This document shows positions 18,178 through 51,864 of a stretch of 64,000 bases of DNA, one piece after another (position 1 is the stretch's first letter; each line of letters opens with the position of its first letter). Source of the stretch: Microgenomates group bacterium. Its GTDB lineage: Bacteria; Patescibacteriota; Microgenomatia; UBA12405. Under the pieces are notes generated by a model. The model did no database searches and was not told where the DNA came from. It worked only from the letters and a program-made list of their open reading frames with translations. The stretch is taken from the NCBI GenBank assembly GCA_049303675.1, contig JBAQNJ010000001.1:199494-263493 (forward strand), given 5' to 3'. The translations under genes and the position numbers were made by a program.

Positions 18178-18219
18178 TCTCTTAATCTCCACTTAATCCA
18201 ACGGCAGTATAATCAATCA

Positions 18220-19458
18220 ATGAAAAATTTTGTTATCTTTGGTGTCAGTGGTGACCTTTCCCAGAGATACATCTTACCCGCCCTTGGTAATTTAGCTGCT
18301 TCCGGCCATCACTTTAATTATTTTGGGTTTTCTCGCCAATCAGTTGATCAATCAACTATAAATTTCTCTCAAAATATAAAATATTTTACCGGTAACTATG
18401 ACTATCAGGGTCTTTCCAAAATGTCTAAATTTCTTACCCCTGATACTATCTTTTATTTTTCTATCCCTACCAGTTATGAGCTCATTGTCTCCCTTGTTTC
18501 CGGTCTATTACAACATCATTTGATTGGTGATCACACTCGCCTCGTTATTGAAAAACCCTTTGGTACTGATTATCAATCAGCCCAAAAACTCATGGATTAT
18601 CTGACCGCCAGTGTCGGTCAGGATAAGGTTTTTTTGGTTGATCACTACCTTAGCAAAGAATTGGTTCGTAACCTTATCTCTCTTCGTTTTGCCAATCCTA
18701 TTATTCACCAGTTGTGGAACAAAGAGCATATCGCCAGAATCAACATTATTGCTGTTGAATCAGCCGGGATTGGTACCCGCAGCCGATATTATGACCAAAT
18801 TGGCGCTATTCGCGATATGATTCAAAATCATTGTCTCCAGCTCCTCGCCATTTCCACCATGTCCGAGCCAGCCAGCTTTGACCAGTCGTCATTCTCTCTC
18901 GAAAAACTAAAAATTATCAACCATCTCGTCCTCACCCAGAAAATCAAAAAAAACGTCAGTATTGGCCAATATCACGGCTATCTTCAGGAATCAGGAGTGG
19001 ATCCCCAGTCCCTTACTGAGACTCTTGCTCAAATAAGTTTTGAAATTAATCTCCCTCACTGGCGGGGAGTTCCTATCACTATCACCACCGGTAAAAAAAT
19101 GGATCAAAAATTGACTGAAATAAATATTATCTTCAAAAAAGCTAGGTCTCTCAAACTCTGGAAAGAAGCTCATAGTCTCAACCCCAACGTTCTCTCAATT
19201 AATCTCTCCCCCCATGCCGACATTTTTCTGTCCCTAAACTCCAGTTTTCAGCCCCACAATCAGCTTCCTCAGCCACAGAACTTACATCTCGGCAGCCTAT
19301 CAGTTAGCCCCAGCTCCGCCTACGAAAGTGTCATTTTGGATATTCTCCACGGCGTCAACATCAATTCCCCTTCCTTTGCCGAGATAATTGCCCAGTGGAA
19401 AATAGTCGATAAAATAATCCACCTCCCTCATCTCCGAGACAAACTTTTTTATTATTAA
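18220..19458 (+). CDS. zwf: glucose-6-phosphate 1-dehydrogenase (short form)
   Basis: FVIFGVSGDLSQRYILPAL at the N-terminus. VDHYLSKE matches the RIDHYLGKE motif. WNKEHIARINIIAVESAGIGTRSRYYDQIGAIRDMIQNHCLQLLA matches the G6PD pattern. Confidence 0.8.
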   Translation: MKNFVIFGVSGDLSQRYILPALGNLAASGHHFNYFGFSRQSVDQSTINFSQNIKYFTGNYDYQGLSKMSKFLTPDTIFYFSIPTSYELIVSLVSGLLQHHLIGDHTRLVIEKPFGTDYQSAQKLMDYLTASVGQDKVFLVDHYLSKELVRNLISLRFANPIIHQLWNKEHIARINIIAVESAGIGTRSRYYDQIGAIRDMIQNHCLQLLAISTMSEPASFDQSSFSLEKLKIINHLVLTQKIKKNVSIGQYHGYLQESGVDPQSLTETLAQISFEINLPHWRGVPITITTGKKMDQKLTEINIIFKKARSLKLWKEAHSLNPNVLSINLSPHADIFLSLNSSFQPHNQLPQPQNLHLGSLSVSPSSAYESVILDILHGVNINSPSFAEIIAQWKIVDKIIHLPHLRDKLFYY

Positions 19459-19459
19459 C

Positions 19460-19618
19460 TTATTTTTTCTTGGCTTTCCTTGAGGTCTTTTTCTTTACTA
19501 CTTTCTTGACAGTCTTTTTTGGGGGCGTCTTGCAACAATCAGGACCGCAGTCCTCAATTAACCCCAAACTTTTACCTATTTTACAAACAAAACAATTACA
19601 ACATCCACCGTGGTCCAT
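19460..19618 (-). CDS. unannotated 52-aa Cys-rich peptide with a Lys-rich tail, immediately downstream of the histidine kinase
   Basis: Hand translation: MDHGGCCNCFVCKIGKSLGLIEDCGPDCCKTPPKKTVKKVVKKKTSRKAKKK. It has 8 Cys. It is below the 60-aa cutoff of the ORF track. Confidence 0.45.
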   Translation of the reverse strand: MDHGGCCNCFVCKIGKSLGLIEDCGPDCCKTPPKKTVKKVVKKKTSRKAKKK

Positions 19619-19645
19619 AAATATATTTAACAATTAATTAATCCA

Positions 19646-21046
19646 TTAAACCATATTTTCCACACTCAGTGTTACTCTAGTCCCACCAACATATTCCTTA
19701 TCATATTCTATCTTCCATGCGTTTCTTTCGCAGATCTGTTTAACCAGCGACATTCCTACTCCAAACCCCAACACTCTTGACTGGTGTTTTTCACCCCGAG
19801 TAAACCGCTCGAATACTTTACTAAATATTTTTTTATCTATTCCTTCGCCTTGATCACAGACTTCAAATATATACTCTGAGTTTATTCTATTCATAGATAT
19901 TTTTATCTCTCCACTCCTTCGGTTATACTTTATGGCGTTTGAAATCAAGTTTGCCATTGCCAGTTCGAAGCCTACTTTATCACACTTAATCAACACCGTT
20001 GGTTCAATTTCATTCAGGCATTTTAGATTCATCTCTGCAATTTTTATTTCCTGTTCTTTGCAGATCAGGTCGACCACTGTTTTTGGCGAAAAATTTTCTC
20101 TCACAATTTTTACTTCATTACGGTCATATCTTGATAACAGCAATAATTCATCCACCCTACGGGATAATTGCATCAACTCATCTTTTGTTGAATTAATTTT
20201 TTTCCTCTGTATTTCGTCATTTGTATCCAGTTTCAATACCTCCAATGTCGATACTACCCTTGCCAGCGGAGTCTTCAATTCATGCGAAGCATTGGAAATA
20301 AACGACTTTTGTTTTTCCAATCCATCCGCCAGTCTGTCCAGTAGCCGATTATATGCTCTTACCAATATTCCCACTTCATCGTTTTCATTACCCACATAAT
20401 CAATTTTATCTCCCAAATTTTCAATCCCCACCTTCTCCATCGCCTCGACTACATCATCTAGAGATCGGAAAACTATTCCCACCAGTTGGTGCGACAATGG
20501 CCAGCTCAGCAGCATACTCAGTACCAGTATTGTCAATATTAGCCAGCCAGCTATTTCCCCAAAGTGCCCAAAAATTAGCATAGGTGAGGCCAGTATCAGT
20601 TCTCCCACTTGCTTCCCCTCATCCAAAATTGGCACCGACAAAATCATATATTTTTCTCCGGACTTACCTACAAAGTTAGCATACTGAGTTTCCTGACTGT
20701 TCCAGTTGTAGCTAGCCACCTCAGCTTCGTTTTGAAATATGCCATATTTAGCCACTGCCTCATTGCCCCCATCCAAAATTTGGGCAGACATATTTTCATC
20801 CCGCAAGTAAGCGCTCAAGGTTCTCCCTTCATCATCTAATCGGAATTTAATTTCACCCTCTTCAAAAAACAGTCTATTAGTTACCATCTCCTTCGCCACA
20901 CCTTCTAGCCCACTCCTCATTCCCCGACTTGAAAACCAGTAATACCCTCCGGCCAATACCGACATTGATATTACTAGGGTAATCCCAATATACATTAAGA
21001 TATAAATCCACGCTCTAGTTTTTATCGCCAGTGGCGCATATTGCAT
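19646..21046 (-). CDS. sensor histidine kinase (2 TM, HAMP, HisKA, HATPase)
   Basis: H-box SNASHELKTPL. N, G1 and G2 boxes present (NAIKYN, DQGEGI, GFGVGMS). Confidence 0.9.
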   Translation of the reverse strand: MQYAPLAIKTRAWIYILMYIGITLVISMSVLAGGYYWFSSRGMRSGLEGVAKEMVTNRLFFEEGEIKFRLDDEGRTLSAYLRDENMSAQILDGGNEAVAKYGIFQNEAEVASYNWNSQETQYANFVGKSGEKYMILSVPILDEGKQVGELILASPMLIFGHFGEIAGWLILTILVLSMLLSWPLSHQLVGIVFRSLDDVVEAMEKVGIENLGDKIDYVGNENDEVGILVRAYNRLLDRLADGLEKQKSFISNASHELKTPLARVVSTLEVLKLDTNDEIQRKKINSTKDELMQLSRRVDELLLLSRYDRNEVKIVRENFSPKTVVDLICKEQEIKIAEMNLKCLNEIEPTVLIKCDKVGFELAMANLISNAIKYNRRSGEIKISMNRINSEYIFEVCDQGEGIDKKIFSKVFERFTRGEKHQSRVLGFGVGMSLVKQICERNAWKIEYDKEYVGGTRVTLSVENMV

Positions 21047-21698
21047 ATCCTTTACCTTTTATAGTTTTTATTAACTTGTTCTTACTTCCCTTATCTATTT
21101 TATTCCTCAAATAACGAATATGGACATCGACAGTATTGGAAAATATATTAGCATTTTCATCCCAGACATGAGCCAACAGATCAATCCTTGATACCGACTC
21201 ATTAACTCTCACCGCCAAATATTCCAAAAGAGCATATTCCTTAGTAGACAGCACAATTTCCCTGCCCGCCCTTTTTACCGTTCGAATGGCGGTATTAATT
21301 TCCAAGTTATCAATTTTTATAATTGGGCTATTAGCCACTCCGCTTCTCCGTAGAGCCGATCTAATTCTGGCTAGCAATTCCTCACTATCAAATGGTTTAG
21401 TGATATAGTCATCCGCCCCTGCATCCAGACCTTCAATTTTATCCTCAATTTGGCTATTGGCCGTCAACATTATTATTTTAACTTCCTTATTTTCCTTTCT
21501 TATCTCTCGGCATAGATCCATTCCTGACCCATCAGGCAGTTTCCAGTCCAATAGAATTAAATCATAATCAGGTGAAATTAGTTTATCATTAGCTTCCATC
21601 ACATTTTTCGCCGTATCTACCGCATAGCTGAATCGTCGGAGTATCGTGGCAAAATTTTCCAGCAGTGTTGTATCATCCTCGACAAACAATATTCTCAT
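21015..21698 (-). CDS. OmpR-family response regulator
   Basis: Receiver domain (MRILFVEDD...LLDWKLPDGSG...K) plus a winged-helix C-terminus. Confidence 0.9.
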   Translation of the reverse strand: MRILFVEDDTTLLENFATILRRFSYAVDTAKNVMEANDKLISPDYDLILLDWKLPDGSGMDLCREIRKENKEVKIIMLTANSQIEDKIEGLDAGADDYITKPFDSEELLARIRSALRRSGVANSPIIKIDNLEINTAIRTVKRAGREIVLSTKEYALLEYLAVRVNESVSRIDLLAHVWDENANIFSNTVDVHIRYLRNKIDKGSKNKLIKTIKGKGYAICATGDKN

Positions 21699-21711
21699 AT
21701 ATTTTTTTTAA

Positions 21712-21749
21712 TTCTGTTAAATTTTCTTTATTTTTATTTCTGTTAAATT
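21712..21749. promoter_or_regulatory. two exact 12-nt direct repeats (TTCTGTTAAATT) 14 nt apart in the response-regulator upstream region
   Basis: Seen directly at 21712-21723 and 21738-21749. OmpR-family regulators bind direct repeats. Confidence 0.3.
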
Positions 21750-21774
21750 CTTAAATTCAATTAAATTTTATTAT

Positions 21775-22251
21775 TTATATTCTTGTTAACTGATTTAAAA
21801 ATGAATTTGGATGTCGGTTGTGGAAAGTAGCTGACATATCCGCCCCACATTGGAATATGTCTCCCCCCGAATGTTGGTTTCTAAAACTCGTCACATCGTA
21901 TCTCCCCCCATCAATCGTAATAATGCACCGATTGTCTACTACCGGTGCTGTTGTTGGTTGTACCGTTTGAGGTGCACTTGTTGGATTATTTGGTTGTGAA
22001 TTAGGACTTTGTGAAGGCTGGGGTTGGCTAAATATCGCCGCAAACGGATCAGGATTATTTGCCACCACTCTTGATTTAGGCTTGGGTTTTACTGTTGGTA
22101 TTACGGTGGGCACCTCAGTCGGTATTGGAAAATTGGCTACGATTGGTGCAGTTGATATGGGTACGTTTGGCTTTTTCAGCGCCATCACCACTGCTCCCAA
22201 CATTATGAAGTTAAACAGAGCAATTAAAAAGGCAATTTTTATTAGTTTCAT
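21775..22251 (-). CDS. secreted cytochrome b5-like heme-binding domain protein with a Pro-rich linker
   Basis: Signal or TM anchor, a P/T/Q-rich spacer, then CIITIDGGRYDVTSFRNQHSGGDIFQCGADMSATFHNRH. This aligns with the b5 core (VYDLTKFLEEHPGGEEVL..AGGDATE.FEDVGHS) including both His ligands. Confidence 0.65.
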   Translation of the reverse strand: MKLIKIAFLIALFNFIMLGAVVMALKKPNVPISTAPIVANFPIPTEVPTVIPTVKPKPKSRVVANNPDPFAAIFSQPQPSQSPNSQPNNPTSAPQTVQPTTAPVVDNRCIITIDGGRYDVTSFRNQHSGGDIFQCGADMSATFHNRHPNSFLNQLTRI

Positions 22252-23531
22252 TATTTAAAGGCAAAATCTTCAAAAATAATATTGTTACTGTGTACCCCAT
22301 TGGCCCTTAGTTGGGTTACCATACTTTCCATCATCGCCAGTGGTCCACAAATATAAAATCGTTTGTCAGTTATCTTTCCCAGCATTTCCAGCAGAATACT
22401 AACATTGATTCTCGGCTTATTACCCCCAAAGAATCTATAATATTTTAGGTTTAACATCTGTTCCGATAGTACGGTTATTTCATTATCATAGACCGCATCC
22501 TCTACGCTAGCAGCTCCATAAAACATATGAACAGTTCTCGACAAAGGTGTCTGTTTCTCTTTGGCCAACATACTCAAAAACGGAGTCACCCCAATTCCTC
22601 CTCCAATCATCACCACATCACCACTCTTCTCATAATTCTTATAAAACCTCCCATACGGTCCCCACACGCTAGCCATCGTCCCTGTTTTTAATTGCCTTAG
22701 TTTCAAAGTATGATCTCCTAGCGCCTTAATCGAAAATCTAATCTCCTCCGAGTCTGGTCCTGACGAAATCGTGAACGGGTGTTTTTCCGCCAATTCTGGG
22801 ATATCAAAGTTAACAAAAGCAAATTGCCCCGCCCTAAACCTCATTTTGTCTCCAACCGCCGCTAGGTATATTTCCAGAATGTCTCCCATTTTTTTGACTT
22901 CTTTTACTCGATATTTATATTTAGGACCGAGGCCTCCATACAGCACTACCTTATATACAAATGAAAACAATGCCAATCCCAAAAATACAAAAATCCAAAT
23001 CCGAAGTGGCATATATCTCGACACATCACTACTTATCATAAAAATATGTAGTGCCCCCAGTAGTAGTGTCAGTCCCAAAAAGTCATGTGTTTTCAGCCAC
23101 ATATCATAAGGTAATTTAACGACAAAAGTCAGCAACAGTGCCAAAATCATCACATATAATGCCCCCACCCCGAGGTTATAACTCACCGTCGACGATAACC
23201 AATAGTATCTTGCCGCCAATTGATAGTTTGGCAGGGCATCGACAGCCAAAAATAGGGGATGGTTAATTAGCATAATAAATGACAATCCGCCCACAATATG
23301 ATGCGTTTTCATTACTTTATCCATGCCTCCAAACATATATTCCAAAAAGAAAGCCCGACTACTCAAAATGAAGCTCCATGCCAACAGCATCGTTCCCAAA
23401 AGTGAAATCAGTTGAGATGCACTTAGCCATGGCATTTGTCGGATTACTCCGATATCGCTCTTTGACATCACATACAGTCCAGTAGTAGTCATTATGGCTA
23501 GCCATATTAGCCAGTTACCTATATATTTCAT
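22251..23531 (-). CDS. NOX/ferric-reductase (FRE) family flavocytochrome: 6-TM bis-heme domain plus FAD and NAD(P)H-binding domains
   Basis: His pairs in TM helices (HHIVGGLSFIMLINH and HDFLGLTLLLGALH). FAD motif HPFTISSGP. NADPH motif MIGGGIGVTPFLSML. Confidence 0.85.
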   Translation of the reverse strand: MKYIGNWLIWLAIMTTTGLYVMSKSDIGVIRQMPWLSASQLISLLGTMLLAWSFILSSRAFFLEYMFGGMDKVMKTHHIVGGLSFIMLINHPLFLAVDALPNYQLAARYYWLSSTVSYNLGVGALYVMILALLLTFVVKLPYDMWLKTHDFLGLTLLLGALHIFMISSDVSRYMPLRIWIFVFLGLALFSFVYKVVLYGGLGPKYKYRVKEVKKMGDILEIYLAAVGDKMRFRAGQFAFVNFDIPELAEKHPFTISSGPDSEEIRFSIKALGDHTLKLRQLKTGTMASVWGPYGRFYKNYEKSGDVVMIGGGIGVTPFLSMLAKEKQTPLSRTVHMFYGAASVEDAVYDNEITVLSEQMLNLKYYRFFGGNKPRINVSILLEMLGKITDKRFYICGPLAMMESMVTQLRANGVHSNNIIFEDFAFK

Positions 23532-23547
23532 CTATCAATTATATGGC

Positions 23548-24213
23548 TTAATCGTCAATTTCTTCAGATTCAACTTCCCTTCTCTCGCTATTTCTATTCT
23601 CCCGACTTTCATACCTGTCTCTGTTTTCACTATCTTCTCTCTCATCATCGTCATCTTCAAAATCACGAACACTTGACTCATCTTTGGCCCCAGTAGGCTT
23701 GACGGTCGTGGTCGGGATAGCTGTTGGTGTCCTTGTTGGCTCTATACTCGGAGTTACCGTCAAAAAGACAGGTGCAGTTGTTACTGTTGGGGTGATTGCC
23801 CCACCGACTAAGAATTGTTGCATTTTATCTACGTTTGTACCGTACTTAGCTGAATATTTACTGGTCATATCTCCGCCACAGTTAAACAAATCACCATTTT
23901 TCCCTTGACCATTGGGTGTAGTTACATCATATTCTTTTCCAAATAGCGTAATAATACACTTACCACTGGTTTTCTTAGGTTGTTCTACTTCAATTTCGTG
24001 CAGATCAACTGGCGCTGACTCGGGTGTCACAGTTGGTACAGCTTCAGTTAATATTTTTGGTTTCGACATCTCTAATCCACTTTTGGGTATTCTATTTTCT
24101 CCCATTGCTGCCGTTGCTTTTGATGCAGCAATACCCATTGTCCCTACCGAAATACCAGCAGTTAGTAGTAACATTAGCTTAAATCCTAGAGTTGATAATA
24201 GTGATTCGTTCAT
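23548..24213 (-). CDS. secreted b5-like domain paralog lacking both canonical His ligands, with a T/P-rich linker and a poly-acidic C-terminal tail
   Basis: CIITLFGKEYDVTTPNGQGKNGDLFNCGGDMTSKY is the same fold pattern without His. The tail is DFEDDDDEREDSENRDRYESRENRNSERREVESEEIDD. Confidence 0.6.
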   Translation of the reverse strand: MNESLLSTLGFKLMLLLTAGISVGTMGIAASKATAAMGENRIPKSGLEMSKPKILTEAVPTVTPESAPVDLHEIEVEQPKKTSGKCIITLFGKEYDVTTPNGQGKNGDLFNCGGDMTSKYSAKYGTNVDKMQQFLVGGAITPTVTTAPVFLTVTPSIEPTRTPTAIPTTTVKPTGAKDESSVRDFEDDDDEREDSENRDRYESRENRNSERREVESEEIDD

Positions 24214-24270
24214 AATTAGTTAAATTCTAATGGGTCATTGTATCTCAGCCAACATTAAGATTTGATTAAC

Positions 24271-24603
24271 TTATTTAACCAATCTGGCCACAATTGGGTA
24301 TTTTCGTCTAATTATCGCTCCACCGGCTATGTTTAAATCAGTTGTCGAGTCTTTTCCCGCCAAAAAGTTATAAACTGCGCCTTTTTCATAAAATTTTTTG
24401 CCACTAGTCACATCATAAACATTGCCCTCATAGGCCAAATATATTGGCAATTTTGGATCACTTCCATCATGTTTAGACAATTCACTCAAAGTCATTGGTT
24501 TCAAATTTTGATCCACCACCGTCGGTGCTTTTTGAAAAAAGGGCAATTGTTTAGCCAACAAATATGTTCCCATGACCAATCCCAAAGTCAACAAAACCAT
24601 CAA
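24271..24603 (-). CDS. MAPR/PGRMC-like cytochrome b5-type heme/steroid-binding domain protein with an N-terminal TM anchor
   Basis: LSELSKHDGSDPKLPIYLAYEGNVYDVTSGKKFYEKGAVYNFLAGKDSTTDL matches the MAPR pattern (KPI..AV.G.VFDVT.G.KFYGP.GPY..FAGRDASR.L). Confidence 0.6.
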   Translation of the reverse strand: MMVLLTLGLVMGTYLLAKQLPFFQKAPTVVDQNLKPMTLSELSKHDGSDPKLPIYLAYEGNVYDVTSGKKFYEKGAVYNFLAGKDSTTDLNIAGGAIIRRKYPIVARLVK

Positions 24604-24630
24604 CCCACTCTTAATATATTTAATTAATTT

Positions 24631-24658
24631 CGTAATTAGTAATTCGTAATTAGTAATT
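24631..24658. repeat. exact 14-nt tandem duplication (CGTAATTAGTAATT x2) in the cupin/MAPR intergenic space
   Basis: Seen directly. Confidence 0.5.
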
Positions 24659-25055
24659 ATTCTGTCGTTACTCCATCAAATTCAGGACTATTAGTCTCGG
24701 CCTCAGCTTTGGTTGCTCGGACCACCTTGTCTTGATGATGTGCCGGAGAATAAATAGTATACAGTTTTAGCATTTCTGTCTCCGAAGTATTGATCACATT
24801 ATGGTTTGCTCCAGCCGGTACTACAATTGCCGATCCGTTGGTCACCGTATACTCATGGTCATCAATAATTACCTTGCCAAATCCACTCTCAAATCTAAAA
24901 AACTGGTCATTCTCCCTATGGACCTCCATCCCAATTTCTTCTTTTGGTATTAGGTTCATCAATACCAGCTGACTATGTTTACTGGTGTAGAGTACTTGTC
25001 TAAAATTATTATTTTTGATTGTCGCTTCTTCGATGTTTATATTAAATCCATTCAT
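24657..25055 (-). CDS. cupin-domain protein
   Basis: Small beta-barrel pattern with the two cupin motifs (G.EVHRENDQFF...G / PAGANHNV). Confidence 0.6.
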   Translation of the reverse strand: MNGFNINIEEATIKNNNFRQVLYTSKHSQLVLMNLIPKEEIGMEVHRENDQFFRFESGFGKVIIDDHEYTVTNGSAIVVPAGANHNVINTSETEMLKLYTIYSPAHHQDKVVRATKAEAETNSPEFDGVTTE

Positions 25056-25088
25056 ATTACTAGTTATTAGTTAATTGTAACTAACTTA

Positions 25089-25493
25089 TTATAGACCACG
25101 ATTCAAAAAAGTTATGGAAACTTGTAAAATAGTAGCAAATCCAACCCACAGCAAATAAGGGATTTGAATATAAGCAATCCATGACTTAATTGGATAAATA
25201 ACTTGCATCGCCCAAATCAAGGTAGCAAGCACCAATATTATATCCACCATCGCCAAATAGTTGTTTTTCAAACCAAATTGTATCGGTGTAAATATAATAT
25301 TAAATAAAATATTTAGTAAAAAAGGCAACCAAACCACAACAGAAATTTGCTTACTTATAGCCATTTTAAACACATTTCCAAAAGAAATTGCTATCAGTAC
25401 ATAGAGGAATGTCCAGACCGGACCAAACAAAAAAGCAGGCGGAGCCCATGATGGTTTTATCAGTGTCGCATACCAGTTATATGTTGGAGTCAT
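25089..25493 (-). CDS. tspO: TspO/MBR (tryptophan-rich sensory protein, translocator protein) family membrane protein
   Basis: WYATLIKPSWAPPAFLFGPVWTFLYVLI matches the TspO signature (W...L.KP.W.PP...F..VW..LY). Confidence 0.8.
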   Translation of the reverse strand: MTPTYNWYATLIKPSWAPPAFLFGPVWTFLYVLIAISFGNVFKMAISKQISVVVWLPFLLNILFNIIFTPIQFGLKNNYLAMVDIILVLATLIWAMQVIYPIKSWIAYIQIPYLLWVGFATILQVSITFLNRGL

Positions 25494-25568
25494 AATTCAT
25501 TCTACTCTCTTTTAATCGCCTCTTAATCTCTCAAAAGATATCATACTTGCGTTAACCATTAAATTATT

Positions 25569-26195
25569 ATGAACAATTCAAAAAGTAATTTATTTCAAAA
25601 TGCCGTTTTACTCGGTAGTGCCCTCATTATTTCCAGTCTGGCTGCGTTTAGCTTAGTCAAAAATATCTCTCGGGTCAATGCTGCTGCCCCCTGTATTATC
25701 ACTGTCTTTGGCCAGCAATACGATGTCGCTCCTCTCCAAACCGGTCATTCAGGTGGCAATATCTTCGTTTGCGGTACTGACATGACTGCATCTTATCAGA
25801 GTATGCACGGTACTGACGTTTCTCGTATCGCCGCTTATCTTATCACCTCCACTCCGACACCTACGGTTACTGTTGCCCCCAGTGTCAGTCCCACCCCCAC
25901 AGTCACTACCACTCCCACCGTTACTCCTACGTCCTCCCCATCGCCCACAGTGGTTCCTTCGGTTAGCCCCACTGCCACACCTTCAGTTATCAAACACGAC
26001 GATGACGATGAAAATGAAATAGAGGATGAACATGAAAACGAAAATGAAGATCACGACAACGATCATGATGACAATGAACACCGTGAACGTCGTGGCGACA
26101 ATCGCTCCGATCGCGGTCAAGAGCACGGTCAAAATGAATTGCATCAAAGTAGCAATTCCCAAATAAAAGCAGACTCAAGTCATGAAGATGACTAA
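25569..26195 (+). CDS. secreted cytochrome b5-like domain protein with a T/P/S-rich linker and a His- and acid-rich C-terminal tail
   Basis: Signal peptide, then CIITVFGQQYDVAPLQTGHSGGNIFVCGTDMTASYQSMHGTD (both His present). The tail is HDDDDENEIEDEHENENEDHDNDHDDNEHRERRGD... Confidence 0.65.
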   Translation: MNNSKSNLFQNAVLLGSALIISSLAAFSLVKNISRVNAAAPCIITVFGQQYDVAPLQTGHSGGNIFVCGTDMTASYQSMHGTDVSRIAAYLITSTPTPTVTVAPSVSPTPTVTTTPTVTPTSSPSPTVVPSVSPTATPSVIKHDDDDENEIEDEHENENEDHDNDHDDNEHRERRGDNRSDRGQEHGQNELHQSSNSQIKADSSHEDD

Positions 26196-26213
26196 CCAAT
26201 AGGGAATTGTCCA

Positions 26214-26247
26214 AAAAAGCCCCGACTCCGGTCGGGGTTTTATTTTA
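26214..26247 (+). terminator. rho-independent terminator (ccccgac-tccg-gtcgggg followed by TTTTATTTT). It could act in both directions because an A-run precedes it.
   Basis: Seen directly. Confidence 0.6.
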
Positions 26248-27399
26248 TCTTCTGACCAGCAATATTCCAAAAGGTAGGTCTCTCCCAGGCCCTGCCAAGT
26301 ATTTGCCATTTTGCCACAAGGCAATCGACCCCCCACTATCCAAGTTGATCGCATTTTTTATCCCTAGTCCCACCACCACATTGGCCATTTCTGCTACCGT
26401 ACAATTATATACCAGTCCAATATAGACAGTGTTATCCGTCCCTCCAATAAAGGCTCTGGTACCCTTACCTGATTTCTTTGGGTCCCCATCGCCACTGAAT
26501 TGTGATTGGCCGTTAAATACCAGTAGTGGCTGGCCGGCAATGACACTATCCACTCCGGTGTCCCGTCCCCACTGCGATGACTGCGATACAAATCGTGATG
26601 TTGTCGAAAATATAGCGGCGGGTACAGAACTGTAGACATTATTATCCGAATTAAAATAAACCTTATTTTTGTTCATCATTAGCGTATCAAACGAATTTTT
26701 CTTACTGGCACAAGCAGGGTAGCTGGCTGGACAAAAATATGGTCCATTTATGGCCGCTATTGCCCCCGATCTGGCGGCATAAGTGCCCAGCGACATAACC
26801 GGACAATTATCGCCACAGCTACCATCGCTGGCGGTATCTACTACCACCTTGGTTGTCCGTAGATCAGCACTAATTACTCGGACCGCAAATTCACCGCTAT
26901 TGGTATTTACCGTTTGGGTACCGACTGCCCCACTGGCTGGCACACTTGCCACTGCCCGTCTATCTGATTCCTTCTTAATTTCCAACCCCAATAATTTTAG
27001 TGTTGCCGATGCCGAGGCTATATTTTCCTTTGTCACCCAGTCCAAAGTCTGGGCAAAATACTTATCTATTGTCGCCAATTGTTTTTTATCACTTCGTAGA
27101 TCTATCAAATCTTCATAGCTAATTATTGTTGATTTTAGAATTGTCTTTAGTTCTTTTAGTTCCTTATTTAGATTTTCATTTATCACCACCTGATCACTTT
27201 TTTTAAATTCTTCGTACTCGTTTACTTTTTGTTCCAGCTGTCCGGCCAAATCCAGATTCTTTTTTTGAAGGTTGTTTTGTGTTTCAGTCCAAGACTTTAT
27301 TTGCCGGTCATTAATCCTCAAAATTACCATCACCATCATTCCTAGCAATATTATTCCACCTATCCACAATCCCAATTTTCTCATCTCTAAGTCTACCAA
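26245..27399 (-). CDS. phosphodiester glycosidase (NAGPA-like/DUF2233) family protein with an N-terminal TM helix and a coiled coil
   Basis: The C-terminal domain has AINGPYF...GQPLLVFNG...AINLDSGGS, as in the phosphodiester glycosidase family. Confidence 0.55.
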   Translation of the reverse strand: MVDLEMRKLGLWIGGIILLGMMVMVILRINDRQIKSWTETQNNLQKKNLDLAGQLEQKVNEYEEFKKSDQVVINENLNKELKELKTILKSTIISYEDLIDLRSDKKQLATIDKYFAQTLDWVTKENIASASATLKLLGLEIKKESDRRAVASVPASGAVGTQTVNTNSGEFAVRVISADLRTTKVVVDTASDGSCGDNCPVMSLGTYAARSGAIAAINGPYFCPASYPACASKKNSFDTLMMNKNKVYFNSDNNVYSSVPAAIFSTTSRFVSQSSQWGRDTGVDSVIAGQPLLVFNGQSQFSGDGDPKKSGKGTRAFIGGTDNTVYIGLVYNCTVAEMANVVVGLGIKNAINLDSGGSIALWQNGKYLAGPGRDLPFGILLVRR

Positions 27400-39923: not shown

Positions 39924-40093
39924 AATAGAGTATTTTGTGCATGTGATATTTCTCTGCCATGTTCAGATCTATCCAAAATACTCAATATTTCTTTTTTTAA
40001 TGCAAGTGGAATCATGGTTATTTTTCAAATATATTTCAATATTCGCAGCAACTATTTTTTGGATAGCAAATTAGACAGTGGTACATGAATTAA

Positions 40094-40345
40094 TTATACC
40101 TTGTCACTCCATTTAATATGCCTTTTTATAAATTCTCTACCAGAACCTGTTTTCATATATTTTTCAAATCGAAAGGCAACTTTTTCATCAGTGAAAGCAA
40201 AATATGCAATTAGTTTCCAAGGTCTTAGATTTTTTGTTGCTGGAACAAATCCCTTATTGTGTCTTTGAAATCTATCTTTCAAATCATTAGTACAACCAAC
40301 ATAAGGAATTTTGTCTTTGTTTTCTAGAAAGTAAACATAAAACAC
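40094..40345 (-). CDS. GIY-YIG nuclease superfamily protein (UPF0213/YhbQ-like)
   Basis: YVYFLENKDKIPYVGCTNDLKDRFQRHN contains GIY...YVG plus the conserved R and N. Confidence 0.75.
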   Translation of the reverse strand: MFYVYFLENKDKIPYVGCTNDLKDRFQRHNKGFVPATKNLRPWKLIAYFAFTDEKVAFRFEKYMKTGSGREFIKRHIKWSDKV

Positions 40346-40468
40346 AATTAAATAATACTCTCTTTCTCGTTAAGCGGATTTATCCGCCGGAGCAGGGTGT
40401 AGTACAGTCATAGAAAAGCTTACTCTAATCGAAAACAACCCGCCTACGTTATCACCCAGCGGGCGTAG

Positions 40469-40510
40469 GCGGAGCATTAGGATCTGGAACCTTCCTGTCC
40501 CTATAACCCA
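40469..40510 (+). repeat. direct repeat copy 1 (about 42 nt) ending exactly at the ATG of ORF 40510
   Basis: ggcggagcattaggatctggaaccttcctgtccctataaccc. Confidence 0.6.
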
Positions 40511-40860
40511 TGTCTAAACTTAATGGCAATATTTTGAAAATTCTTATATACTATTCTTGTATGGGATATAACGAAAACCATATTCAGTCAACTCTATCAC
40601 AAGCAGTTGCCGACATGAAGCAATACTATCCTCGTGTTGAAGTACTATCCAACTTTCGTCGTGCTTCCGATGGTCACCCCACCCGGGTTACTTTGACAGT
40701 CATCGGTTTTTCTGATACTGGTTATAACGAAAGAACTTTACCCCTTCGTCATCCACGCCACCCTGGTGAACAGTCACTTATAGCCCAAAAACGTATGCTT
40801 GATCATGAAATCGGTCTTCGATGTCTTACTATCCGTCCGGATGTTGAAATCAATAGTTAG
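40510..40860 (+). CDS. hypothetical protein (116 aa) bracketed by about 42-nt direct repeats
   Basis: ORF only. Its composition is somewhat GC-richer than the surroundings. Confidence 0.45.
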   Translation: MSKLNGNILKILIYYSCMGYNENHIQSTLSQAVADMKQYYPRVEVLSNFRRASDGHPTRVTLTVIGFSDTGYNERTLPLRHPRHPGEQSLIAQKRMLDHEIGLRCLTIRPDVEINS

Positions 40861-40862
40861 TT

Positions 40863-40906
40863 GGCGGAGCATTGGGGTCTGGAATCTTTCTGTCCCTATA
40901 ACACCC
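40863..40906 (+). repeat. direct repeat copy 2, starting 2 nt after the ORF stop
   Basis: ggcggagcattggggtctggaatctttctgtccctataacaccc, about 85 percent identical to copy 1. Confidence 0.6.
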
Positions 40907-41046
40907 TCTTACCCACTGTCTCATTCTATCAAAGATTTAAAGCTAAATGAGACAAATGAGACGGTTTAAAATGGAACTTAAAACTTGTGATGTAGTTTGA
41001 CATATAAATATCTTTGCCCCAAATGTTTTTAGTTTCAAGCCAACAG

Positions 41047-41079
41047 GGCATGACTTAAATAAAATAAGCAGGTTGAAGT
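41047..41079 (-). terminator. rho-independent terminator (aagcag-loop-ctgctt plus a T-run on the minus strand)
   Basis: Seen directly. Confidence 0.5.
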
Positions 41080-41109
41080 AAATCTGCTTATAAATATAAC
41101 AAGATAACT

Positions 41110-41337
41110 CTAATCTAGATTATCCAAATATACTCTGTAGTTATTGGCCGTTTTGCCTTTTTTGGCGGCTTCAACTATAGCCTGATCATTTTTATCGGAC
41201 TCATCCTGGATAGCTTGTGGTATATTTATTCCGTCCAGAGAAAGGATATCGCCTAGTTCGGCACCCACAGGGGCGTGGACAAAACGATTAAGGGCTCGAC
41301 GAAGACCTGAATCAATTGAGATTTTTAGTTTATCCAT
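41110..41337 (-). CDS. hypothetical protein (75 aa)
   Basis: ORF only. Confidence 0.4.
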   Translation of the reverse strand: MDKLKISIDSGLRRALNRFVHAPVGAELGDILSLDGINIPQAIQDESDKNDQAIVEAAKKGKTANNYRVYLDNLD

Positions 41338-41485
41338 AATTGTCAGATTTTACCACGTATTTTCAACTTTATTTATTGTTGCTCAAATTTATACCTATTT
41401 CTGGGTTTTATGTTCGCTGGCAAATTAATCTACTTTCAATGTGGATTATAACTCACAACTTTAGGTATATAATTCCCCTATAAAT

Positions 41486-42064
41486 ATGACCGAAATTGAA
41501 ATTCGAGGCAAATTATCAAAAGACAAATTTGACGAGCTATTTAAGCTATTAACCAGTGGTGGAGAATTGGCTGATCACTACCATCGTCTATCAATTGATT
41601 TATCTTCGGGTTTCGATCCCACTACAAAAACATGGAAAAACAGCAGTGGTACGGATATCAGATTAAAGAAAAGTGATGATAAAGAAAAACTATCGGTAAA
41701 AATGGGTAGTTTTCACGAAAAAGAAAGAAAAGAGGTTGAGGTCAAACTCCAAACAGGACAATTCCTCAGTGCTCTAGACTTCTTGGAGGCTCTAGGGTAT
41801 CAAAATGGCATGATTTATTATTGGGAAAGTTGGGAATTCAATTATCGGGGTGTCGAGATTAAATTATCAAAATATACCGATGATTATTTTACTTTTGAAA
41901 TCGAAGGTAAAGAGAATACTGACGTTGATGCGATTGCTGAGGATTTTGAACTAACTCAATACTCTCAAGAGCAATACCGACAAGTGATTGACTGGGAGAA
42001 CCAAAATATTCATCAACTATACACTCGAGAACTAACCGAAAATTTGTTAAAAAGTGAATTTTAA
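41486..42064 (+). CDS. CYTH-domain (triphosphate tunnel metalloenzyme, CyaB-like) protein
   Basis: N-terminal EIEIRGKL (ExExK motif), and alternating acidic residues along the predicted beta-strands. Confidence 0.55.
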   Translation: MTEIEIRGKLSKDKFDELFKLLTSGGELADHYHRLSIDLSSGFDPTTKTWKNSSGTDIRLKKSDDKEKLSVKMGSFHEKERKEVEVKLQTGQFLSALDFLEALGYQNGMIYYWESWEFNYRGVEIKLSKYTDDYFTFEIEGKENTDVDAIAEDFELTQYSQEQYRQVIDWENQNIHQLYTRELTENLLKSEF

Positions 42065-42611
42065 TATGCACATAATCTATCTTTCAGGAGGAAGTGTCCG
42101 CAATAAGATTTGGATCGAAGAAATTAAATCGAAATTCGATAAATTTTCTGATGGCCAAATTCTGTATTATTCTCATTGGGAAACGGGTGAGAAAAATCTA
42201 AATTTTGAAATTGAAACTAAGAAACTATCAGAACTAGTTGCGGGTAAAGATGAATATTTTGTCTTTGCCAAATCCATCGGTTCAATTTTGGCACTAAAAA
42301 GCATTTATGAAAAAGTTATTAGCCCCAAAAAGATGGTGATTTGCGGTCATCCCTATAATTTAGCCAAAGAGCTAGGATTTCCTATTGATGACTATTTAAA
42401 ATCGTTGACTATCTCTACAATTTTCTTCCAAAACGAATTCGACCCATTATTTAGTTATGCTGATCTTGAAAAAGTTTTAGGAGAGAATATTGCGTCTGAT
42501 TATCACTTAATAAAAAATCCAGATAACAACACTCATGATTATGAGGACTTTGAAAAATTGACAGAAGTCGCAAACAAGTCGTTTACCGCTATGCAACCTC
42601 CAATTGTCTAA
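42054..42611 (+). CDS. alpha/beta-hydrolase-like protein (overlaps the CYTH gene by 11 nt)
   Basis: Nucleophile-elbow-like FAKSIGS. The fold call is tentative. Confidence 0.4.
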   Translation: MNFNMHIIYLSGGSVRNKIWIEEIKSKFDKFSDGQILYYSHWETGEKNLNFEIETKKLSELVAGKDEYFVFAKSIGSILALKSIYEKVISPKKMVICGHPYNLAKELGFPIDDYLKSLTISTIFFQNEFDPLFSYADLEKVLGENIASDYHLIKNPDNNTHDYEDFEKLTEVANKSFTAMQPPIV

Positions 42612-43443
42612 GGTAATTTATTGAATTTTGAACTAAATCAATTTTATTTTCTTTTCCTTCAGGCTCAATTGAAAAAAAGCCATCATATCCATTCTTTAAT
42701 AAGATTCTAAACAATGATTTATAAGGTATATCACCTTTACCCAACTCAACCACCGCTTTGTTTTTCTCATCAAAATCCTTTAGGTGAATATATTCAATTG
42801 AATCAACAGTTTTTTCAAAATCATTAATTCCAATAGGCTGTCCTATTACATAGGTGTTGCCAATGTCTAACAATAATTTATAGTTGTCTCCATACAGATT
42901 TTTGAAGTTTAGTATTTGTGAAGTGGAATAGAAATATGTTGATAAACCGTTTTCAAGTAACAAATCAATGTGATTATCTCTTGCCTGAGTAAGAGCTAAT
43001 TCGTATAGGTCACTTTCTTCATTCCAAAAAGAATCATTTTCTTGACCTTCGCTTTTTATCAAAGAAAATATCCTTACATATTTAGTTTCGAAAATCTTGG
43101 CTACTACAAAAGCCTTCATTATATAATCTATCTTCGTGTGTTTCGGTATATATTTATTAAAACCAAACATGAGATCGTTATGGGTCAGATCCCTAGTATC
43201 TTGATTGTCGCTCTCCGGACACCACTTGAACAGTGGTGATGCAATTGCCGAAACTTGAATATTATTACGATCAAGTTTTTCTTTTATGTTATTAATTTCT
43301 TCGATAGTACAGTCGAGAATATTTTTATTACCAATGTATCGTAATTCAACATAATCAATATGGTTACTTACCAAAAACTTTAAACTTTCGTCGAAGTTGT
43401 CACTAATTTCATCATTGATAACTGATAATTTGGGAATGTTCAC
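42589..43443 (-). CDS. sugar phosphate isomerase/epimerase (xylose-isomerase-like TIM barrel)
   Basis: Size and pattern (VELRY...E...H.KD...E) fit. Confidence 0.6.
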   Translation of the reverse strand: MNIPKLSVINDEISDNFDESLKFLVSNHIDYVELRYIGNKNILDCTIEEINNIKEKLDRNNIQVSAIASPLFKWCPESDNQDTRDLTHNDLMFGFNKYIPKHTKIDYIMKAFVVAKIFETKYVRIFSLIKSEGQENDSFWNEESDLYELALTQARDNHIDLLLENGLSTYFYSTSQILNFKNLYGDNYKLLLDIGNTYVIGQPIGINDFEKTVDSIEYIHLKDFDEKNKAVVELGKGDIPYKSLFRILLKNGYDGFFSIEPEGKENKIDLVQNSINYLRQLEVA

Positions 43444-43458
43444 TGTTTTTATTAAAAA

Positions 43459-44175
43459 CTATAAATGAATACCATTGTTGACATCGATACATACTCCATT
43501 AATGTATCTTGGGCTTGATGTAGCAAGCCAAAATATAGTCTCAGCAATTTCTTCAACAGTCGCGTATCTTTTCTCAATAGATGATGCCTTAAAAGCCTCT
43601 TTTCTCTCTTTGGGTGCAGTCTGTAACATGTCAGTATCCACTGGCCCGGGTGCCACACAATTTATAACAATACCCTCAGGACCTAATATTTTTGAAAAAC
43701 TCTTTGTAACATTAACAATACCAGCTTTGGCGATACCATACCAAATATCAGAGTGGCCAACATGAGCTGCCATTGAAGAAAGATTAACGATCCTTCCATT
43801 CTTTTTCTTAATCATACTTTTTGAAAATTCTTTGATCAGTTCAATTGGCGCAAAGAGATCGAGTGTTAACATTTCATCCTGTTTCTTAGCTGGGTAATTG
43901 TCATACGGTAGTGCGTTTAGAATACCTGCATTGTTTACTAGTATGTCGATGTTTCCAACGTCTATTATGAGTTTTGGAATATTGTCTAAATCTAGAAGGT
44001 TGTATTCTATACAGCGCACTTTTGAAACTATTGACTTTGGAAATTTTGAAAAATCTTTATCGACAATGATGATTTCGTACGAATTTTTATCTTCAATAAA
44101 CTTTTTTACTGTGGCTAAGCCGATTCCTTTACCACCACCTGTAATTAAAACTCGGGGAATATAATTATCACTCAT
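43459..44175 (-). CDS. SDR-family oxidoreductase
   Basis: TGGGKGIG Rossmann motif. NAG and YxxxK-like motifs present (YGIAKAG). Confidence 0.85.
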   Translation of the reverse strand: MSDNYIPRVLITGGGKGIGLATVKKFIEDKNSYEIIIVDKDFSKFPKSIVSKVRCIEYNLLDLDNIPKLIIDVGNIDILVNNAGILNALPYDNYPAKKQDEMLTLDLFAPIELIKEFSKSMIKKKNGRIVNLSSMAAHVGHSDIWYGIAKAGIVNVTKSFSKILGPEGIVINCVAPGPVDTDMLQTAPKERKEAFKASSIEKRYATVEEIAETIFWLATSSPRYINGVCIDVNNGIHL

Positions 44176-44225
44176 CTGTTTTCAAAGAATATTTAACTTG
44201 AGACATTATAACCCAACTTAAGCTA

Positions 44226-46097: not shown

Positions 46098-46100
46098 ATT

Positions 46101-47129: not shown

Positions 47130-47135
47130 AATACG

Positions 47136-47208
47136 GTGCCGAAGGTTGGACTCGAACCAACATTCCAGGTTTTTCAGACCAGTGCCGTGACCATCTTGGC
47201 TACTTCGG
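47136..47208 (-). tRNA. tRNA-Phe (anticodon GAA), 7 nt upstream of the pheS start
   Basis: Acceptor GCCGAAG/CTTCGGC. Anticodon loop CTGAAAA. T-arm GTTGG-TTCGAGT-CCAAC. There is one T-T mismatch in the anticodon stem. Confidence 0.7.
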
Positions 47209-47212
47209 CTAA

Positions 47213-47239
47213 TAAAAAACCTCCCTTTTTGTCTGGGAG
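47213..47239 (-). terminator. terminator-like hairpin (cctccc...gggagg) with a T-run on the minus strand, between the GT-like gene and tRNA-Phe
   Basis: Seen directly. Confidence 0.45.
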
Positions 47240-47385
47240 GCTTGTTTAATTTTACCTTTTTCAAGATTCAAGCCTCCGTTAATACGGAGTAAAGAAGAAA
47301 AAGTTAAAATTAAAAACATTGATCACAAGACGATAGTACCACTAAGTAGATATTTAGGTCAATAGCGATAATTATTAAGAAGAAC

Positions 47386-48624: not shown

Positions 48625-48626
48625 GT

Positions 48627-49874: not shown

Positions 49875-49886
49875 ATTTTTATAAAT

Positions 49887-51781: not shown

Positions 51782-51864
51782 CGGAAGGGGAGGGAGTCGA
51801 ACCCTCATGCCATTTCTGACGCGGGTTTAGCAAACCCGTGGCTTACCATTCGCCGCACCCTTCC
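51782..51864 (-). tRNA. tRNA-Ser (anticodon GCT), long variable arm
   Basis: Acceptor GGAAGGG/CCCTTCC. Anticodon stem CGGGT/ACCCG with loop TTGCTAA. T-arm GAGGG-TTCGACT-CCCTC. Confidence 0.8.

Follow-up and report, generated by a model that had tools for sequence, protein, structure and literature searches.

A candidate electron-export operon pairing a NOX-type flavocytochrome with cytochrome b5-like proteins in a Microgenomates bacterium

Operons in which cytochrome b5-like proteins accompany a putative ferric reductase have been described from bacteria of the candidate phyla radiation (CPR). Section 3.5 of Tamarit et al. (bioRxiv 10.1101/2021.11.17.468889) sets out an operon of cytb5MY, the putative ferric reductase (pFre), two atypical cytb5-like proteins, and a two-component system. 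In that account, cytb5MY is co-located with the reductase in 29 of 36 CPR genomes, and 28 of the 36 have other cytb5-domain proteins (CBLA, CBLB) and 22 the two-component system; the operon is regarded as the probable ancestral state in the CPR and is proposed to specify an inducible membrane redox complex, and the paper states that co-location of reductase and cytb5 was not seen outside the CPR. The operon reconstructed by Thejer et al. 2023 (PMC10093951) also held TSPO. A literature search found no experimental follow-up of the CPR operon. The subject of the present analysis is a gene cluster of this kind in a 64,000-nucleotide stretch of DNA, here called the window, from a Microgenomates group bacterium (assembly GCA_049303675.1, contig JBAQNJ010000001.1, positions 199,494 to 263,493). 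A first-pass annotation of the window had presented the cluster as a combination not described before, but the CPR operon appears in Tamarit et al. 2021, to which Thejer et al. 2023 added TSPO.

The window cluster is, as judged from its gene content, a further instance of the CPR cytb5MY/pFre/cytb5-like/two-component operon, with extras that are specific to its sub-clade. The host belongs to the CPR (Patescibacteria) by the depositor's Microgenomates label, and the window encodes a cytb5MY, an adjacent pFre, two cytb5-like proteins with transmembrane (TM) anchors, and a two-component system; the gene set as a whole (MAPR-like protein, pFre, two cytb5-like proteins, OmpR-type system, and TSPO) is the same as that of the operon of Tamarit et al. 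and Thejer et al. The common order in the CPR places the long b5 gene before the MAPR gene; the window has the reverse, with the MAPR-like gene first. Relative to the operon of Tamarit et al., the window has as extras a divergent b5 paralogue, a long protein without heme-ligand histidines, a cupin, and a Cys-rich peptide. A conserved promoter box, its link to glucose-6-phosphate dehydrogenase (G6PD), an acidic C-terminal motif, and reductase-b5 pairs outside the CPR do not figure in the part of the Tamarit et al. text that deals with the operon. What is new here is the conserved promoter box and the occurrence of the reductase-b5 pair beyond the CPR, in DPANN archaea and in Nitrincola.

The locus rather probably specifies an inducible, NAD(P)H-driven chain that exports electrons to outward-facing b5 carriers. 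Electron export is the best reading because the module is conserved and the b5 domains are most likely extracytoplasmic. The first-pass annotation had suggested a module for extracellular electron transfer, ferric reduction, or heme handling; of this proposal the electron-export part is retained, but the MAPR-like protein and the 221-aa b5-like protein are unlikely to be simple relays.

The conservation of the module was assessed by scanning the reductase alignment against one genome per species, which gave 80 loci (the homologous loci compared with the window cluster are numbered L001-L098), and by running a hidden Markov model (HMM) made from the window b5 domains on the 7,006 open reading frames (ORFs) of these 80 loci. 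The HMM matched 29 ORFs, 23 of them directly downstream of the reductase gene and the remainder directly upstream of it, bar one stray match outside any cluster. A b5 gene stands directly downstream of the flavocytochrome gene in 23 of the 80 species-level loci, usually with an overlap of 4 nt, and is the most widespread partner of the reductase clade in this survey; the gene-neighborhood check proposed by the first-pass annotation thus found an adjacency far beyond chance. The CPR loci with the pair carry the labels Collierbacteria, Paceibacterota, WS6, Saccharibacteria, Buchananbacteria, and Staskawiczbacteria. In DPANN archaea with Pacearchaeota and Woesearchaeota labels (L013 9875-11652, L014, and L041), the reductase gene is overlapped by a gene for an HPGG-type b5 protein, and L013 is truly archaeal, with eIF2-gamma and aIF5B encoded nearby. 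In the complete genome of Nitrincola sp. MINF-07-Sa-05 (NZ_CP176580.1; L066 11170-12360), the reductase gene is followed by one for a 396-aa fusion of a signal peptide, a Cyt-b5 domain (53 bits), and an FMN_bind domain (43 bits). The Nitrincola pair, a culturable non-CPR case, has a LysR regulator gene upstream and an MgtE gene downstream.

A core of six genes, for the long b5-like protein, the MAPR-like protein, the flavocytochrome, the short b5 protein, the response regulator, and the kinase, recurs in all of the close relatives examined and also in CPR phyla that are distant from the window. In L081, L082, L085, L086, L097, and L098, the genes stand in the common order, with the long b5-like gene first and then those for the MAPR-like protein, the reductase, the short b5 protein, the regulator, and the kinase; in the window sub-clade (L088 and L090-L096), the MAPR-like gene comes first, followed by the long b5-like and reductase genes. 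Orthologues of the MAPR-like gene adjoin the flavocytochrome gene in 5 genome loci and in all close relatives, and those of the regulator gene occupy the same position in L004, L005, L081, L082, L084-L086, L088, L090, L091, L094, L097, and L098. Gene content, homology, this conserved synteny, and the conserved box described below are direct observations, and the suggestion that the genes form a conserved functional module is borne out by them. That unrelated genes have come to lie side by side by accident could be argued from the absence of TspO, the cupin, and the Cys peptide from most distant loci, but CPR phyla, DPANN archaea, and one gammaproteobacterium all keep the order and overlaps of the core genes, and the loci have a promoter box in common; such an accident is improbable in the extreme, and for the core genes chance adjacency is excluded because synteny is conserved. 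In Rhodobacterales (L075, L078, and L080), small signal-peptide proteins with the motif DDDC..P...W.PR flank the reductase instead of b5 proteins and may represent a different class of extracytoplasmic partner. The neighbors of the operon vary and are often concerned with metals or redox reactions (L081 8574-10929, L085 13881-17190, L086 3028-9066 and 13917-16367, and L084 4123-4621); they include a P-type cation ATPase alongside MgtC, proteins of SUF Fe-S assembly, a soluble FAD/NAD reductase together with ferredoxin and DsbA, and a CsoR-like repressor together with thioredoxin.

The flavocytochrome gene of the window (pFre or bacterial NOX; 22251..23531, minus strand) encodes a protein with Pfam matches to FAD_binding_8 and NAD_binding_1. 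In an alignment of 29 homologues (34-65% identity), four of its histidines, H77, H91, H149, and H162, are invariant, and the pairs H77-x13-H91 and H149-x12-H162 have the spacing of the bis-His heme sites of NOX and FRE enzymes. The family profile matches SpNOX (PDB 8qt6 and 8qq7) with 236 bits over almost its full length, from SpNOX residue 43 onward, from TM2 to the C terminus. The motifs HPFTISSGP and GIGVTPF, by which the first-pass annotation recognized a NOX/FRE enzyme, are both present in the translation, and the assignment is upheld by the FAD_binding_8, NAD_binding_1, and SpNOX profile matches, but Pfam Ferric_reduct (PF01794) gives no match to the window sequence itself and NAD_binding_6 stays below the Pfam cut-off, with NAD_binding_1 being the supported domain. 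It should be noted that PF01794 is matched by homologues of 34-64% identity and that the TM domain aligns with that of SpNOX; hydropathy indicates five hydrophobic segments, and homology with SpNOX indicates six TM helices. The filter of Hajjar et al. 2017 for bacterial NOX enzymes specifies two His-X12/14-His pairs that are separated by 20 residues or more and lie within 3-7 TM helices, and the window protein passes every one of its sequence filters, with HPFTI, GIGVTP, and the His pairs. By homology, the protein is a full-length SpNOX-type bacterial NOX with 6-TM bis-heme, FAD, and NAD(P)H domains, of the same architecture and length class as SpNOX (8qq7 and 8qt6; Hajjar et al. 2017; Dubach et al.; Petit-Hartlein et al. 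2024).

The SpNOX papers describe, in the parts that concern electron acceptors, a highly exposed outer heme and the direct reduction of cytochrome c under anaerobic conditions, and both groups that study SpNOX have proposed that a protein acceptor is possible. The available text of these papers reports no partner protein for SpNOX, whereas in the window the next gene, which overlaps that of the reductase, encodes a b5 protein that is predicted to face outward. By analogy, this b5 gene offers a concrete candidate for the acceptor protein that was postulated for SpNOX. A different role, that of a true NADPH oxidase which converts O2 at the cell surface to superoxide or peroxide for signaling, defense, or attack on a host, with the b5 proteins as modulators or scavengers, would account for the agreement with all of the bacterial NOX sequence filters and for the consumption of O2 by SpNOX in vitro that is recorded in the same papers. 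The G6PD gene of the window carries a copy of the box, and its co-induction would mirror the supply of the respiratory burst by the pentose-phosphate pathway. Nevertheless, the same passages describe SpNOX as having no canonical O2-reduction center, and their authors doubt that O2 is its physiological acceptor; a b5 gene after the reductase gene in 23 of 80 loci is also hard to explain if O2 reacts at the outer heme. The oxidase explanation is consequently considered to be quite unlikely.

The b5 gene in question encodes a short cytb5-like protein of 158 residues (b5x158; 21775..22251, minus strand). Its start overlaps the stop codon of the flavocytochrome gene by 1 nt at 22251, as had been annotated, an arrangement consistent with translational coupling. 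The protein is composed of an N-terminal anchor helix, a disordered tether of ~75 residues that is rich in Pro and Thr, and a minimal b5 domain of ~50 residues in which, in the alignment, H127 (in HSGG) and H147 are near-invariant and C109 and C135 invariant. Its Pfam Cyt-b5 match is borderline (23.8 bits; cut-off 23.7). In an AlphaFold 2 model, the b5 domain has predicted local distance difference test scores of 79-91, and the top ~40 Foldseek matches of the model in the PDB are all cytochrome b5, with a root mean square deviation of ~2.6 Å over 54 columns and a probability of 1.0. As modeled, the 158-aa protein is a minimal bis-His b5 domain.

The two longer proteins, b5x221 (23548..24213, minus strand), identified by homology to the 158-aa protein, and b5x208 (25569..26195, plus strand), an ORF for a divergently encoded long cytb5-like paralogue with homology to both the 158- and 221-aa proteins, have no Pfam or NCBIfam match even at E=10. 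Their assignment as b5 proteins rests on a motif that they have in common with the 158-aa protein, C-I-I-T..G..YDV....GG..F.CG.DM; thus, of the three b5-like exoproteins named in the first-pass annotation, the 158-aa protein has a (borderline) Pfam match but the other two have no family match. In b5x208, an N-terminal anchor or signal peptide (site between VNA and AA) is followed by a minimal b5 domain that retains the HSGG...H motif and the Cys pair, a Pro/Thr linker, and an acidic, His-rich tail. The 221-aa protein likewise has an N-terminal anchor, a Pro/Thr linker, and the Cys pair, with GKNG and AKYG in place of the heme histidines. Because both heme-ligand histidines are missing, the long b5-like protein encoded within the operon cannot, to judge from its ligand positions, be a bis-His cytochrome. 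The His-less domain is nevertheless kept in the orthologues of L088, L090, and L092-L094 and in database proteins P0146-P0149, and the possibility that the 221-aa protein is a decaying copy was rejected, as the domain is well conserved in those five loci. More distant orthologues of the long family (L004, L081, L082, L095, and L096) keep HSGG...H. The near-invariant features of the long family are the N-terminal anchor and a C-terminal acidic motif, [DE]n-R-E-D-x-x-[NH]-x-[DE]-R-Y, which reads DDDDEREDSENRDRY in the window. This motif (window 23548-23640) is found also in L004, L081, L082, L085, L086, L088, L090, and L092-L098, usually ends in DD, and survives even in members of the family that have lost the b5 domain. 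Tandem b5 domains, each with its own Cys pair, occur in one anchored protein in L023 (10588-11637), L036 (8160-9245), L037 (11221-12063), and L005 (8740-9618).

The b5-type domains are most likely extracytoplasmic, in agreement with the first-pass annotation. In 35 of 42 b5-type proteins, the hydrophobic segment has a more positive flank on its N-terminal side than on its C-terminal side, which predicts an N-in, C-out orientation. Every CBL-type b5 domain has exactly two Cys at conserved positions, and proteins with two domains have at least four (4 or 5); the window cluster proteins are otherwise poor in Cys, and Cys is absent from the MAPR-like proteins encoded in the operons of close relatives. 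The Nitrincola b5 partner has a signal-peptidase-like site between SHA and QS, and FMN_bind, to which its b5 domain is fused, is an extracytosolic domain (Meheust et al. 2021, PMC8238504). It is conceivable that the b5 proteins lie at the inner face of the membrane instead, where they would take electrons from the FAD domain and serve a membrane enzyme, e.g. in lipid modification. The FAD/NAD domain of the flavocytochrome does match NADH-cytochrome b5 reductases in the PDB, a DUF1295/steroid-reductase-like membrane protein is encoded nearby in L090 and L091, and flank charges alone leave the orientation of the long b5 family ambiguous, as they do that of the window MAPR-like protein. Such a cytoplasm-facing pair is, however, difficult to reconcile with a Cys pair in every CBL-type b5 domain against the otherwise Cys-poor proteins, the positive N-flank in most of the proteins, the Pro/Thr linkers and acidic tails, and the signal-peptidase-like sites of b5x208 and of the Nitrincola protein with its extracytosolic FMN_bind domain, and the four invariant TM heme histidines would be needless if electrons left from the FAD; this arrangement is regarded as very improbable.

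The remaining b5-type protein of the core is a 110-aa cytochrome b5 of the cytb5MY type (24271..24603, minus strand; Pfam Cyt-b5, 42.3 bits). Its best matches in the PDB are the Arabidopsis MAPR (1t0g and 1j03), an archaeal cytb5M (6nzx), and human PGRMC1 (4x8y), the tyrosines of the FY...Y motif are aligned (KFYEKGAVYNFLAGKD and SFYGSGGDYSMFAGKD), and the protein has an N-terminal anchor, no His ligands, and no Cys. Between two aligned blocks there are 8 residues, as against 32 in Arabidopsis MAPR 1t0g. According to Tamarit et al. (bioRxiv 10.1101/2021.11.17.468889), the MAPR-specific inter-helical insert (MIHIR) is a eukaryotic invention. Because this insert is missing, the 110-aa protein is, on comparison of the sequences, MAPR-like (cytb5MY) and not a MAPR; the first-pass assignment to a MAPR-type b5 protein agrees with the Pfam match and the best PDB matches.

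The conservation of the MAPR-type tyrosine ligation also bears on a role in heme acquisition or trafficking in an organism that would scavenge heme, with the MAPR-like and b5-like proteins and TspO as heme or porphyrin receptors or chaperones and the flavocytochrome reducing bound ferric heme for release or transfer. In this scheme the MAPR-like protein would hold ferric heme tightly through tyrosine and ferrous heme only weakly. This possibility overlaps with electron export and differs from it in that heme would be the cargo and not a cofactor. Release of ferrous heme from cytb5MY is a speculation voiced in the operon discussion of Tamarit et al. (10.1101/2021.11.17.468889), TspO recurs in the window sub-clade, with a link to TSPO noted by Thejer et al. 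(PMC10093951), and the His-less b5-like domain, which has a Tyr in place of the second His, is conserved among orthologues in several sub-clade loci. On the other hand, the conserved core yielded no gene for a heme transporter or for heme degradation, most loci lack TspO, the commonest partner, the short b5 protein, has the bis-His ligation typical of electron carriers, and the FMN_bind fusion of Nitrincola points to electron transfer. Heme trafficking as the function of the locus is therefore judged unlikely.

The regulation of the electron-export system can be approached through the conserved promoter box, a direct repeat TTAATC-N4-yTTAAT with an 11-bp period that has a -10 hexamer (TAnAAT) 10-12 nt downstream. 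Each of the 10 first-round loci that include the start of the long b5 gene has an exact match to the search pattern TTAABCNNNNYTTAAT upstream of that start. In a held-out set of new metagenome loci fetched with the long-protein alignment, the five with an intact gene start all had one exact box 38-60 nt upstream of the ATG and a -10 hexamer 11 nt after it. The exact box is accordingly present in 15 of 15 other loci with an intact start of the long b5 gene, and in a 16th, L097, a single position departs from the pattern. Wherever the sequence of a locus with the box extends far enough, the regulator and the kinase are encoded too; the box is absent in L001, L003, and L046, which also lack the long b5-like gene, the regulator, and the kinase. 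The window has three exact boxes as compared with 0.24 expected, a number that was reached in none of 100 shuffles: one in the gap between the MAPR-like and long b5-like genes (24254-24269, minus strand), one before b5x208 (25512-25527, plus strand), and one before the G6PD gene (18182-18197, plus strand). When one mismatch is allowed, the 10 matches in the window as compared with 7 expected are uninformative. Several other matches were set aside as chance: the one-mismatch box at 41425-41440 is not correctly spaced from any -10 hexamer and is followed by an ORF of no family, the exact box in Clostridium L061 lacks a -10 hexamer or start codon at a suitable distance, and those in L006 and L037 are off-target and occur at the chance rate.

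The internal promoter element (24237..24269, minus strand) consists of the box TTAATCAAATCTTAAT, an 11-nt spacer, and the hexamer TACAAT; that of b5x208 (25512..25544, plus strand) of the box TTAATCGCCTCTTAAT, an 11-nt spacer, and TATCAT; and that of the G6PD gene (18182..18213, plus strand) of the box TTAATCTCCACTTAAT, a 10-nt spacer, and TATAAT, with the start codon 6 nt further on. At PhoB-type class II promoters, direct repeats replace the -35 element. The pho box and the promoters of this class in the OmpR family have two direct repeats with an 11-bp period at the -35 position, ~10 nt upstream of the -10 hexamer, as in the window, but the sequence of the repeat differs from that of the pho box (TTAATC/TTAAT here) and binding of a regulator to it is putative. 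The box is a candidate binding site for the OmpR/PhoB-family response regulator of the operon (21015..21698, minus strand; Pfam Response_reg and Trans_reg_C, and NCBIfam), which is encoded next to a sensor histidine kinase (19646..21046, minus strand; Pfam HAMP, HisKA, and HATPase_c, and NCBIfam) with two TM helices flanking an external domain of ~120-130 aa. It can be seen that in L004, L081, L082, L085, L086, L088, L095, and L097, and in the window at 18208-18222, the -10 hexamer ends 6-8 nt before the start codon and there is no Shine-Dalgarno sequence; box-driven transcripts of this kind would be leaderless or nearly so.

These positions also bear on the suggestion that the cluster is co-transcribed. 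The module is indeed conserved, but because a conserved promoter element lies between the MAPR and long b5-like genes, a single uninterrupted transcript is improbable, and the cluster probably contains at least two transcription units, one of TspO, cupin, and MAPR and a box-controlled one that extends from the long b5-like gene to the kinase gene. The Cys-rich peptide probably belongs to the box-controlled unit. As a consequence of the box, the divergent b5x208 would be tied to the system through regulation. The G6PD gene (18220..19458, plus strand; Pfam G6PD_C, 222 bits, and G6PD_N) is convergent with the cluster, as it is in L090 and (cut) in L088, and its product, a producer of NAD(P)H, appears to be co-regulated in the window genome; the link between G6PD and the box may be specific to the window lineage. 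A strong 11-bp-stem hairpin with T-runs on both sides (26216-26241), a bidirectional terminator and the single clear feature to emerge from the promoter and terminator scan, lies between b5x208 and a convergent gene for a NAGPA-domain protein (26245-27399).

From these components, a mechanism for inducible electron export across the membrane can be proposed. Cytoplasmic NAD(P)H, part of it probably supplied in the window genome by the co-regulated G6PD, would be oxidized by the FAD/NAD domain of the flavocytochrome, and the electrons would traverse the membrane by way of its two b hemes, the inner and then the outer. The exposed outer heme would pass them to outward-facing, membrane-tethered b5-type hemoproteins, of which the 158-aa bis-His protein would be the immediate acceptor, with its Pro/Thr tether carrying electrons off the membrane, and the 208-aa bis-His paralogue a second carrier, probably acting after the 158-aa protein. 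The MAPR-like protein, with tyrosine ligation of heme, and the His-less long protein could be subunits for heme handling, docking, or substrate binding and not simple relays; the binding of a cationic substrate by the acidic motif is speculation. The terminal acceptor would most likely be Fe(III) or ferric heme, for assimilation, which is favored by analogy only. The OmpR/PhoB-type regulator of the operon would bind the direct-repeat box that replaces the -35 element.

Several observations weigh against this proposal. Heme binding, topology, electron transfer, and binding of the regulator are all inferred from sequence. The window 221-aa protein, without either heme histidine, is not a relay, and neither are the long-family proteins of L085, L086, and L097, which are without any b5 domain. 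The orientation of the window MAPR-like protein is ambiguous, as it lacks a positive N-flank. No gene for an iron or heme transporter was found in the conserved core of the loci examined, and the neighboring genes are variable. The G6PD box is absent in L090, the only relative that is readable at this position, and scans of the window for consensus promoters and terminators gave counts that are not above those of shuffles.

A broader proposal, which is tentative and on present evidence doubtful, is that the CPR and DPANN carry a regulated, NAD(P)H-driven b5-heme route of extracellular electron transfer, from a SpNOX-type flavocytochrome to b5 cytochromes on long Pro/Thr tethers and with G6PD switched together with it by a dedicated two-component system through a pho-box-like operator, that would reduce external Fe(III), ferric heme, or the surface of a host. 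CPR bacteria and DPANN archaea are generally regarded as being without electron-transport chains. Such a route, if real, would identify the long-sought class of physiological protein acceptors of bacterial NOX enzymes. The cluster bears on the question of what NOX homologues such as SpNOX reduce in vivo and, through prokaryotic relatives, on the role and origin of the MAPR/PGRMC proteins. The box offers a way to define the regulon, in which the membership of G6PD points to NAD(P)H as the source of electrons, and Nitrincola, as a cultured gammaproteobacterium that carries the pair, is experimentally tractable; the box, the regulon, and Nitrincola turn a description of synteny into specific biochemical and genetic tests.

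The other genes of the cluster are accessory. All ten ORFs of the first-pass annotation are present at the positions and on the strands that it gave, and its domain assignments for TspO, the cupin, and the two-component system are backed by Pfam matches, but its statement that every component handles heme, flavin, or electrons is an overreach for the cupin, the two-component system, and the peptide. The TspO/MBR protein (25089..25493, minus strand; Pfam TspO_MBR, 104 bits) is a short, 4-helix form: its 134 residues, with four hydrophobic segments, start at a WYxxLxKPSWxPP motif and align from residue ~28-31 of full-length TspO proteins, and upstream, where 75 bp separate it from the divergent gene, there is neither room nor an ORF for TM1, which leaves it one helix short of the five of the family. 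An orthologue of the same short form (132 aa) is encoded in L088 (71-469). Because the two are 80% identical, above the 64% of the reductase, the short TspO looks like a maintained variant rather than a truncation artifact. TspO lies upstream also in L088 and, partly present, in L092. The Cupin_2 protein (24657..25055, minus strand; Pfam Cupin_2, 51 bits) has orthologues whose genes immediately precede the MAPR-like gene in L092, L093, and L094; in L090 and L091 one 68-aa ORF separates the two, and in L084 the orthologue is 4.3 kb away. TspO and the cupin are accessory genes that recur only in the window sub-clade; homologues of TspO, the cupin, and the Cys peptide are essentially absent from the 80 distant loci, in which there is one cupin (L024), and are not members of the core. 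In L090 (15-888), L091 (22-1626), and L084 (6208-6603), genes for DUF2177, DUF1295 (steroid-reductase/ICMT-like), and a 167-aa protein are found upstream of the cupin, a block that is absent from the window cluster.

The last gene of the cluster (19460..19618, minus strand) encodes a Cys-rich peptide with a Lys-rich tail, MDHGGCCNCFVCK..., of 52 aa from the ATG at 19618. It has 7 Cys, not the eight of the first-pass annotation, and no signal peptide. Orthologous peptides are encoded directly after the kinase gene in L088 (5882-6022), L090 (6451-6612), and L091 (7189-7350), with the consensus M[DN]HGGCCNC[FL][VI]CK.G..LGL[IV]E[DE]C followed by the Lys-rich tail; among 1.84 billion representative proteins there were 2 relatives, and no family match was found. 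It could be a metal-binding or kinase-modulating peptide. Elsewhere in the window, the region 40001-54000 has a lowered G+C content of 0.33-0.38, a GC skew near zero (-0.02 to -0.08) as compared with about -0.2 to -0.3 in the rest, and 4 of the 6 tRNA genes of the window.

Comparison with other systems that pair a membrane reductase of this superfamily with an extracytoplasmic partner helps to place the locus. In E. coli MsrPQ, a bis-heme membrane protein of the ferric-reductase superfamily delivers electrons to a dedicated extracytoplasmic partner, like the pair proposed here, but MsrQ is fed by quinol and has no FAD/NAD domain, and its partner MsrP is a molybdoenzyme, unlike anything in the window cluster, among whose proteins no MsrP-type molybdopterin reductase domain was detected with Pfam. 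Yeast Fre1 is a NOX-type flavocytochrome that reduces extracellular Fe(III), and PGRMC1 and TSPO offer a parallel in the binding of heme by tyrosine and in the association with TSPO; a counterpart of the permease/oxidase partner of Fre1 was not found at the window, and the insert of eukaryotic MAPR is missing from the window MAPR-like protein. There is also a likeness to the "MsrQ-like" flavinylated systems, in which a PF01794-PF00175 fusion adjoins an extracytosolic redox carrier, as in the window. Meheust et al. 2021 (PMC8238504) describe PF01794 and PF00175 together with extracytosolic FMN-binding proteins, propose that these are assimilatory iron reductases, and find flavinylation to be rare in the CPR. 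The carrier of the "MsrQ-like" systems is an ApbE-flavinylated FMN_bind protein, whereas that of the window is a b5-type heme protein; neither FMN_bind nor apbE was found by Pfam in the window cluster, and the Nitrincola locus was the only one with FMN_bind. In the CPR, the role that FMN_bind proteins have in these systems could be taken by a heme-based carrier, and the b5-FMN_bind fusion of Nitrincola bridges the flavinylated and b5 designs.

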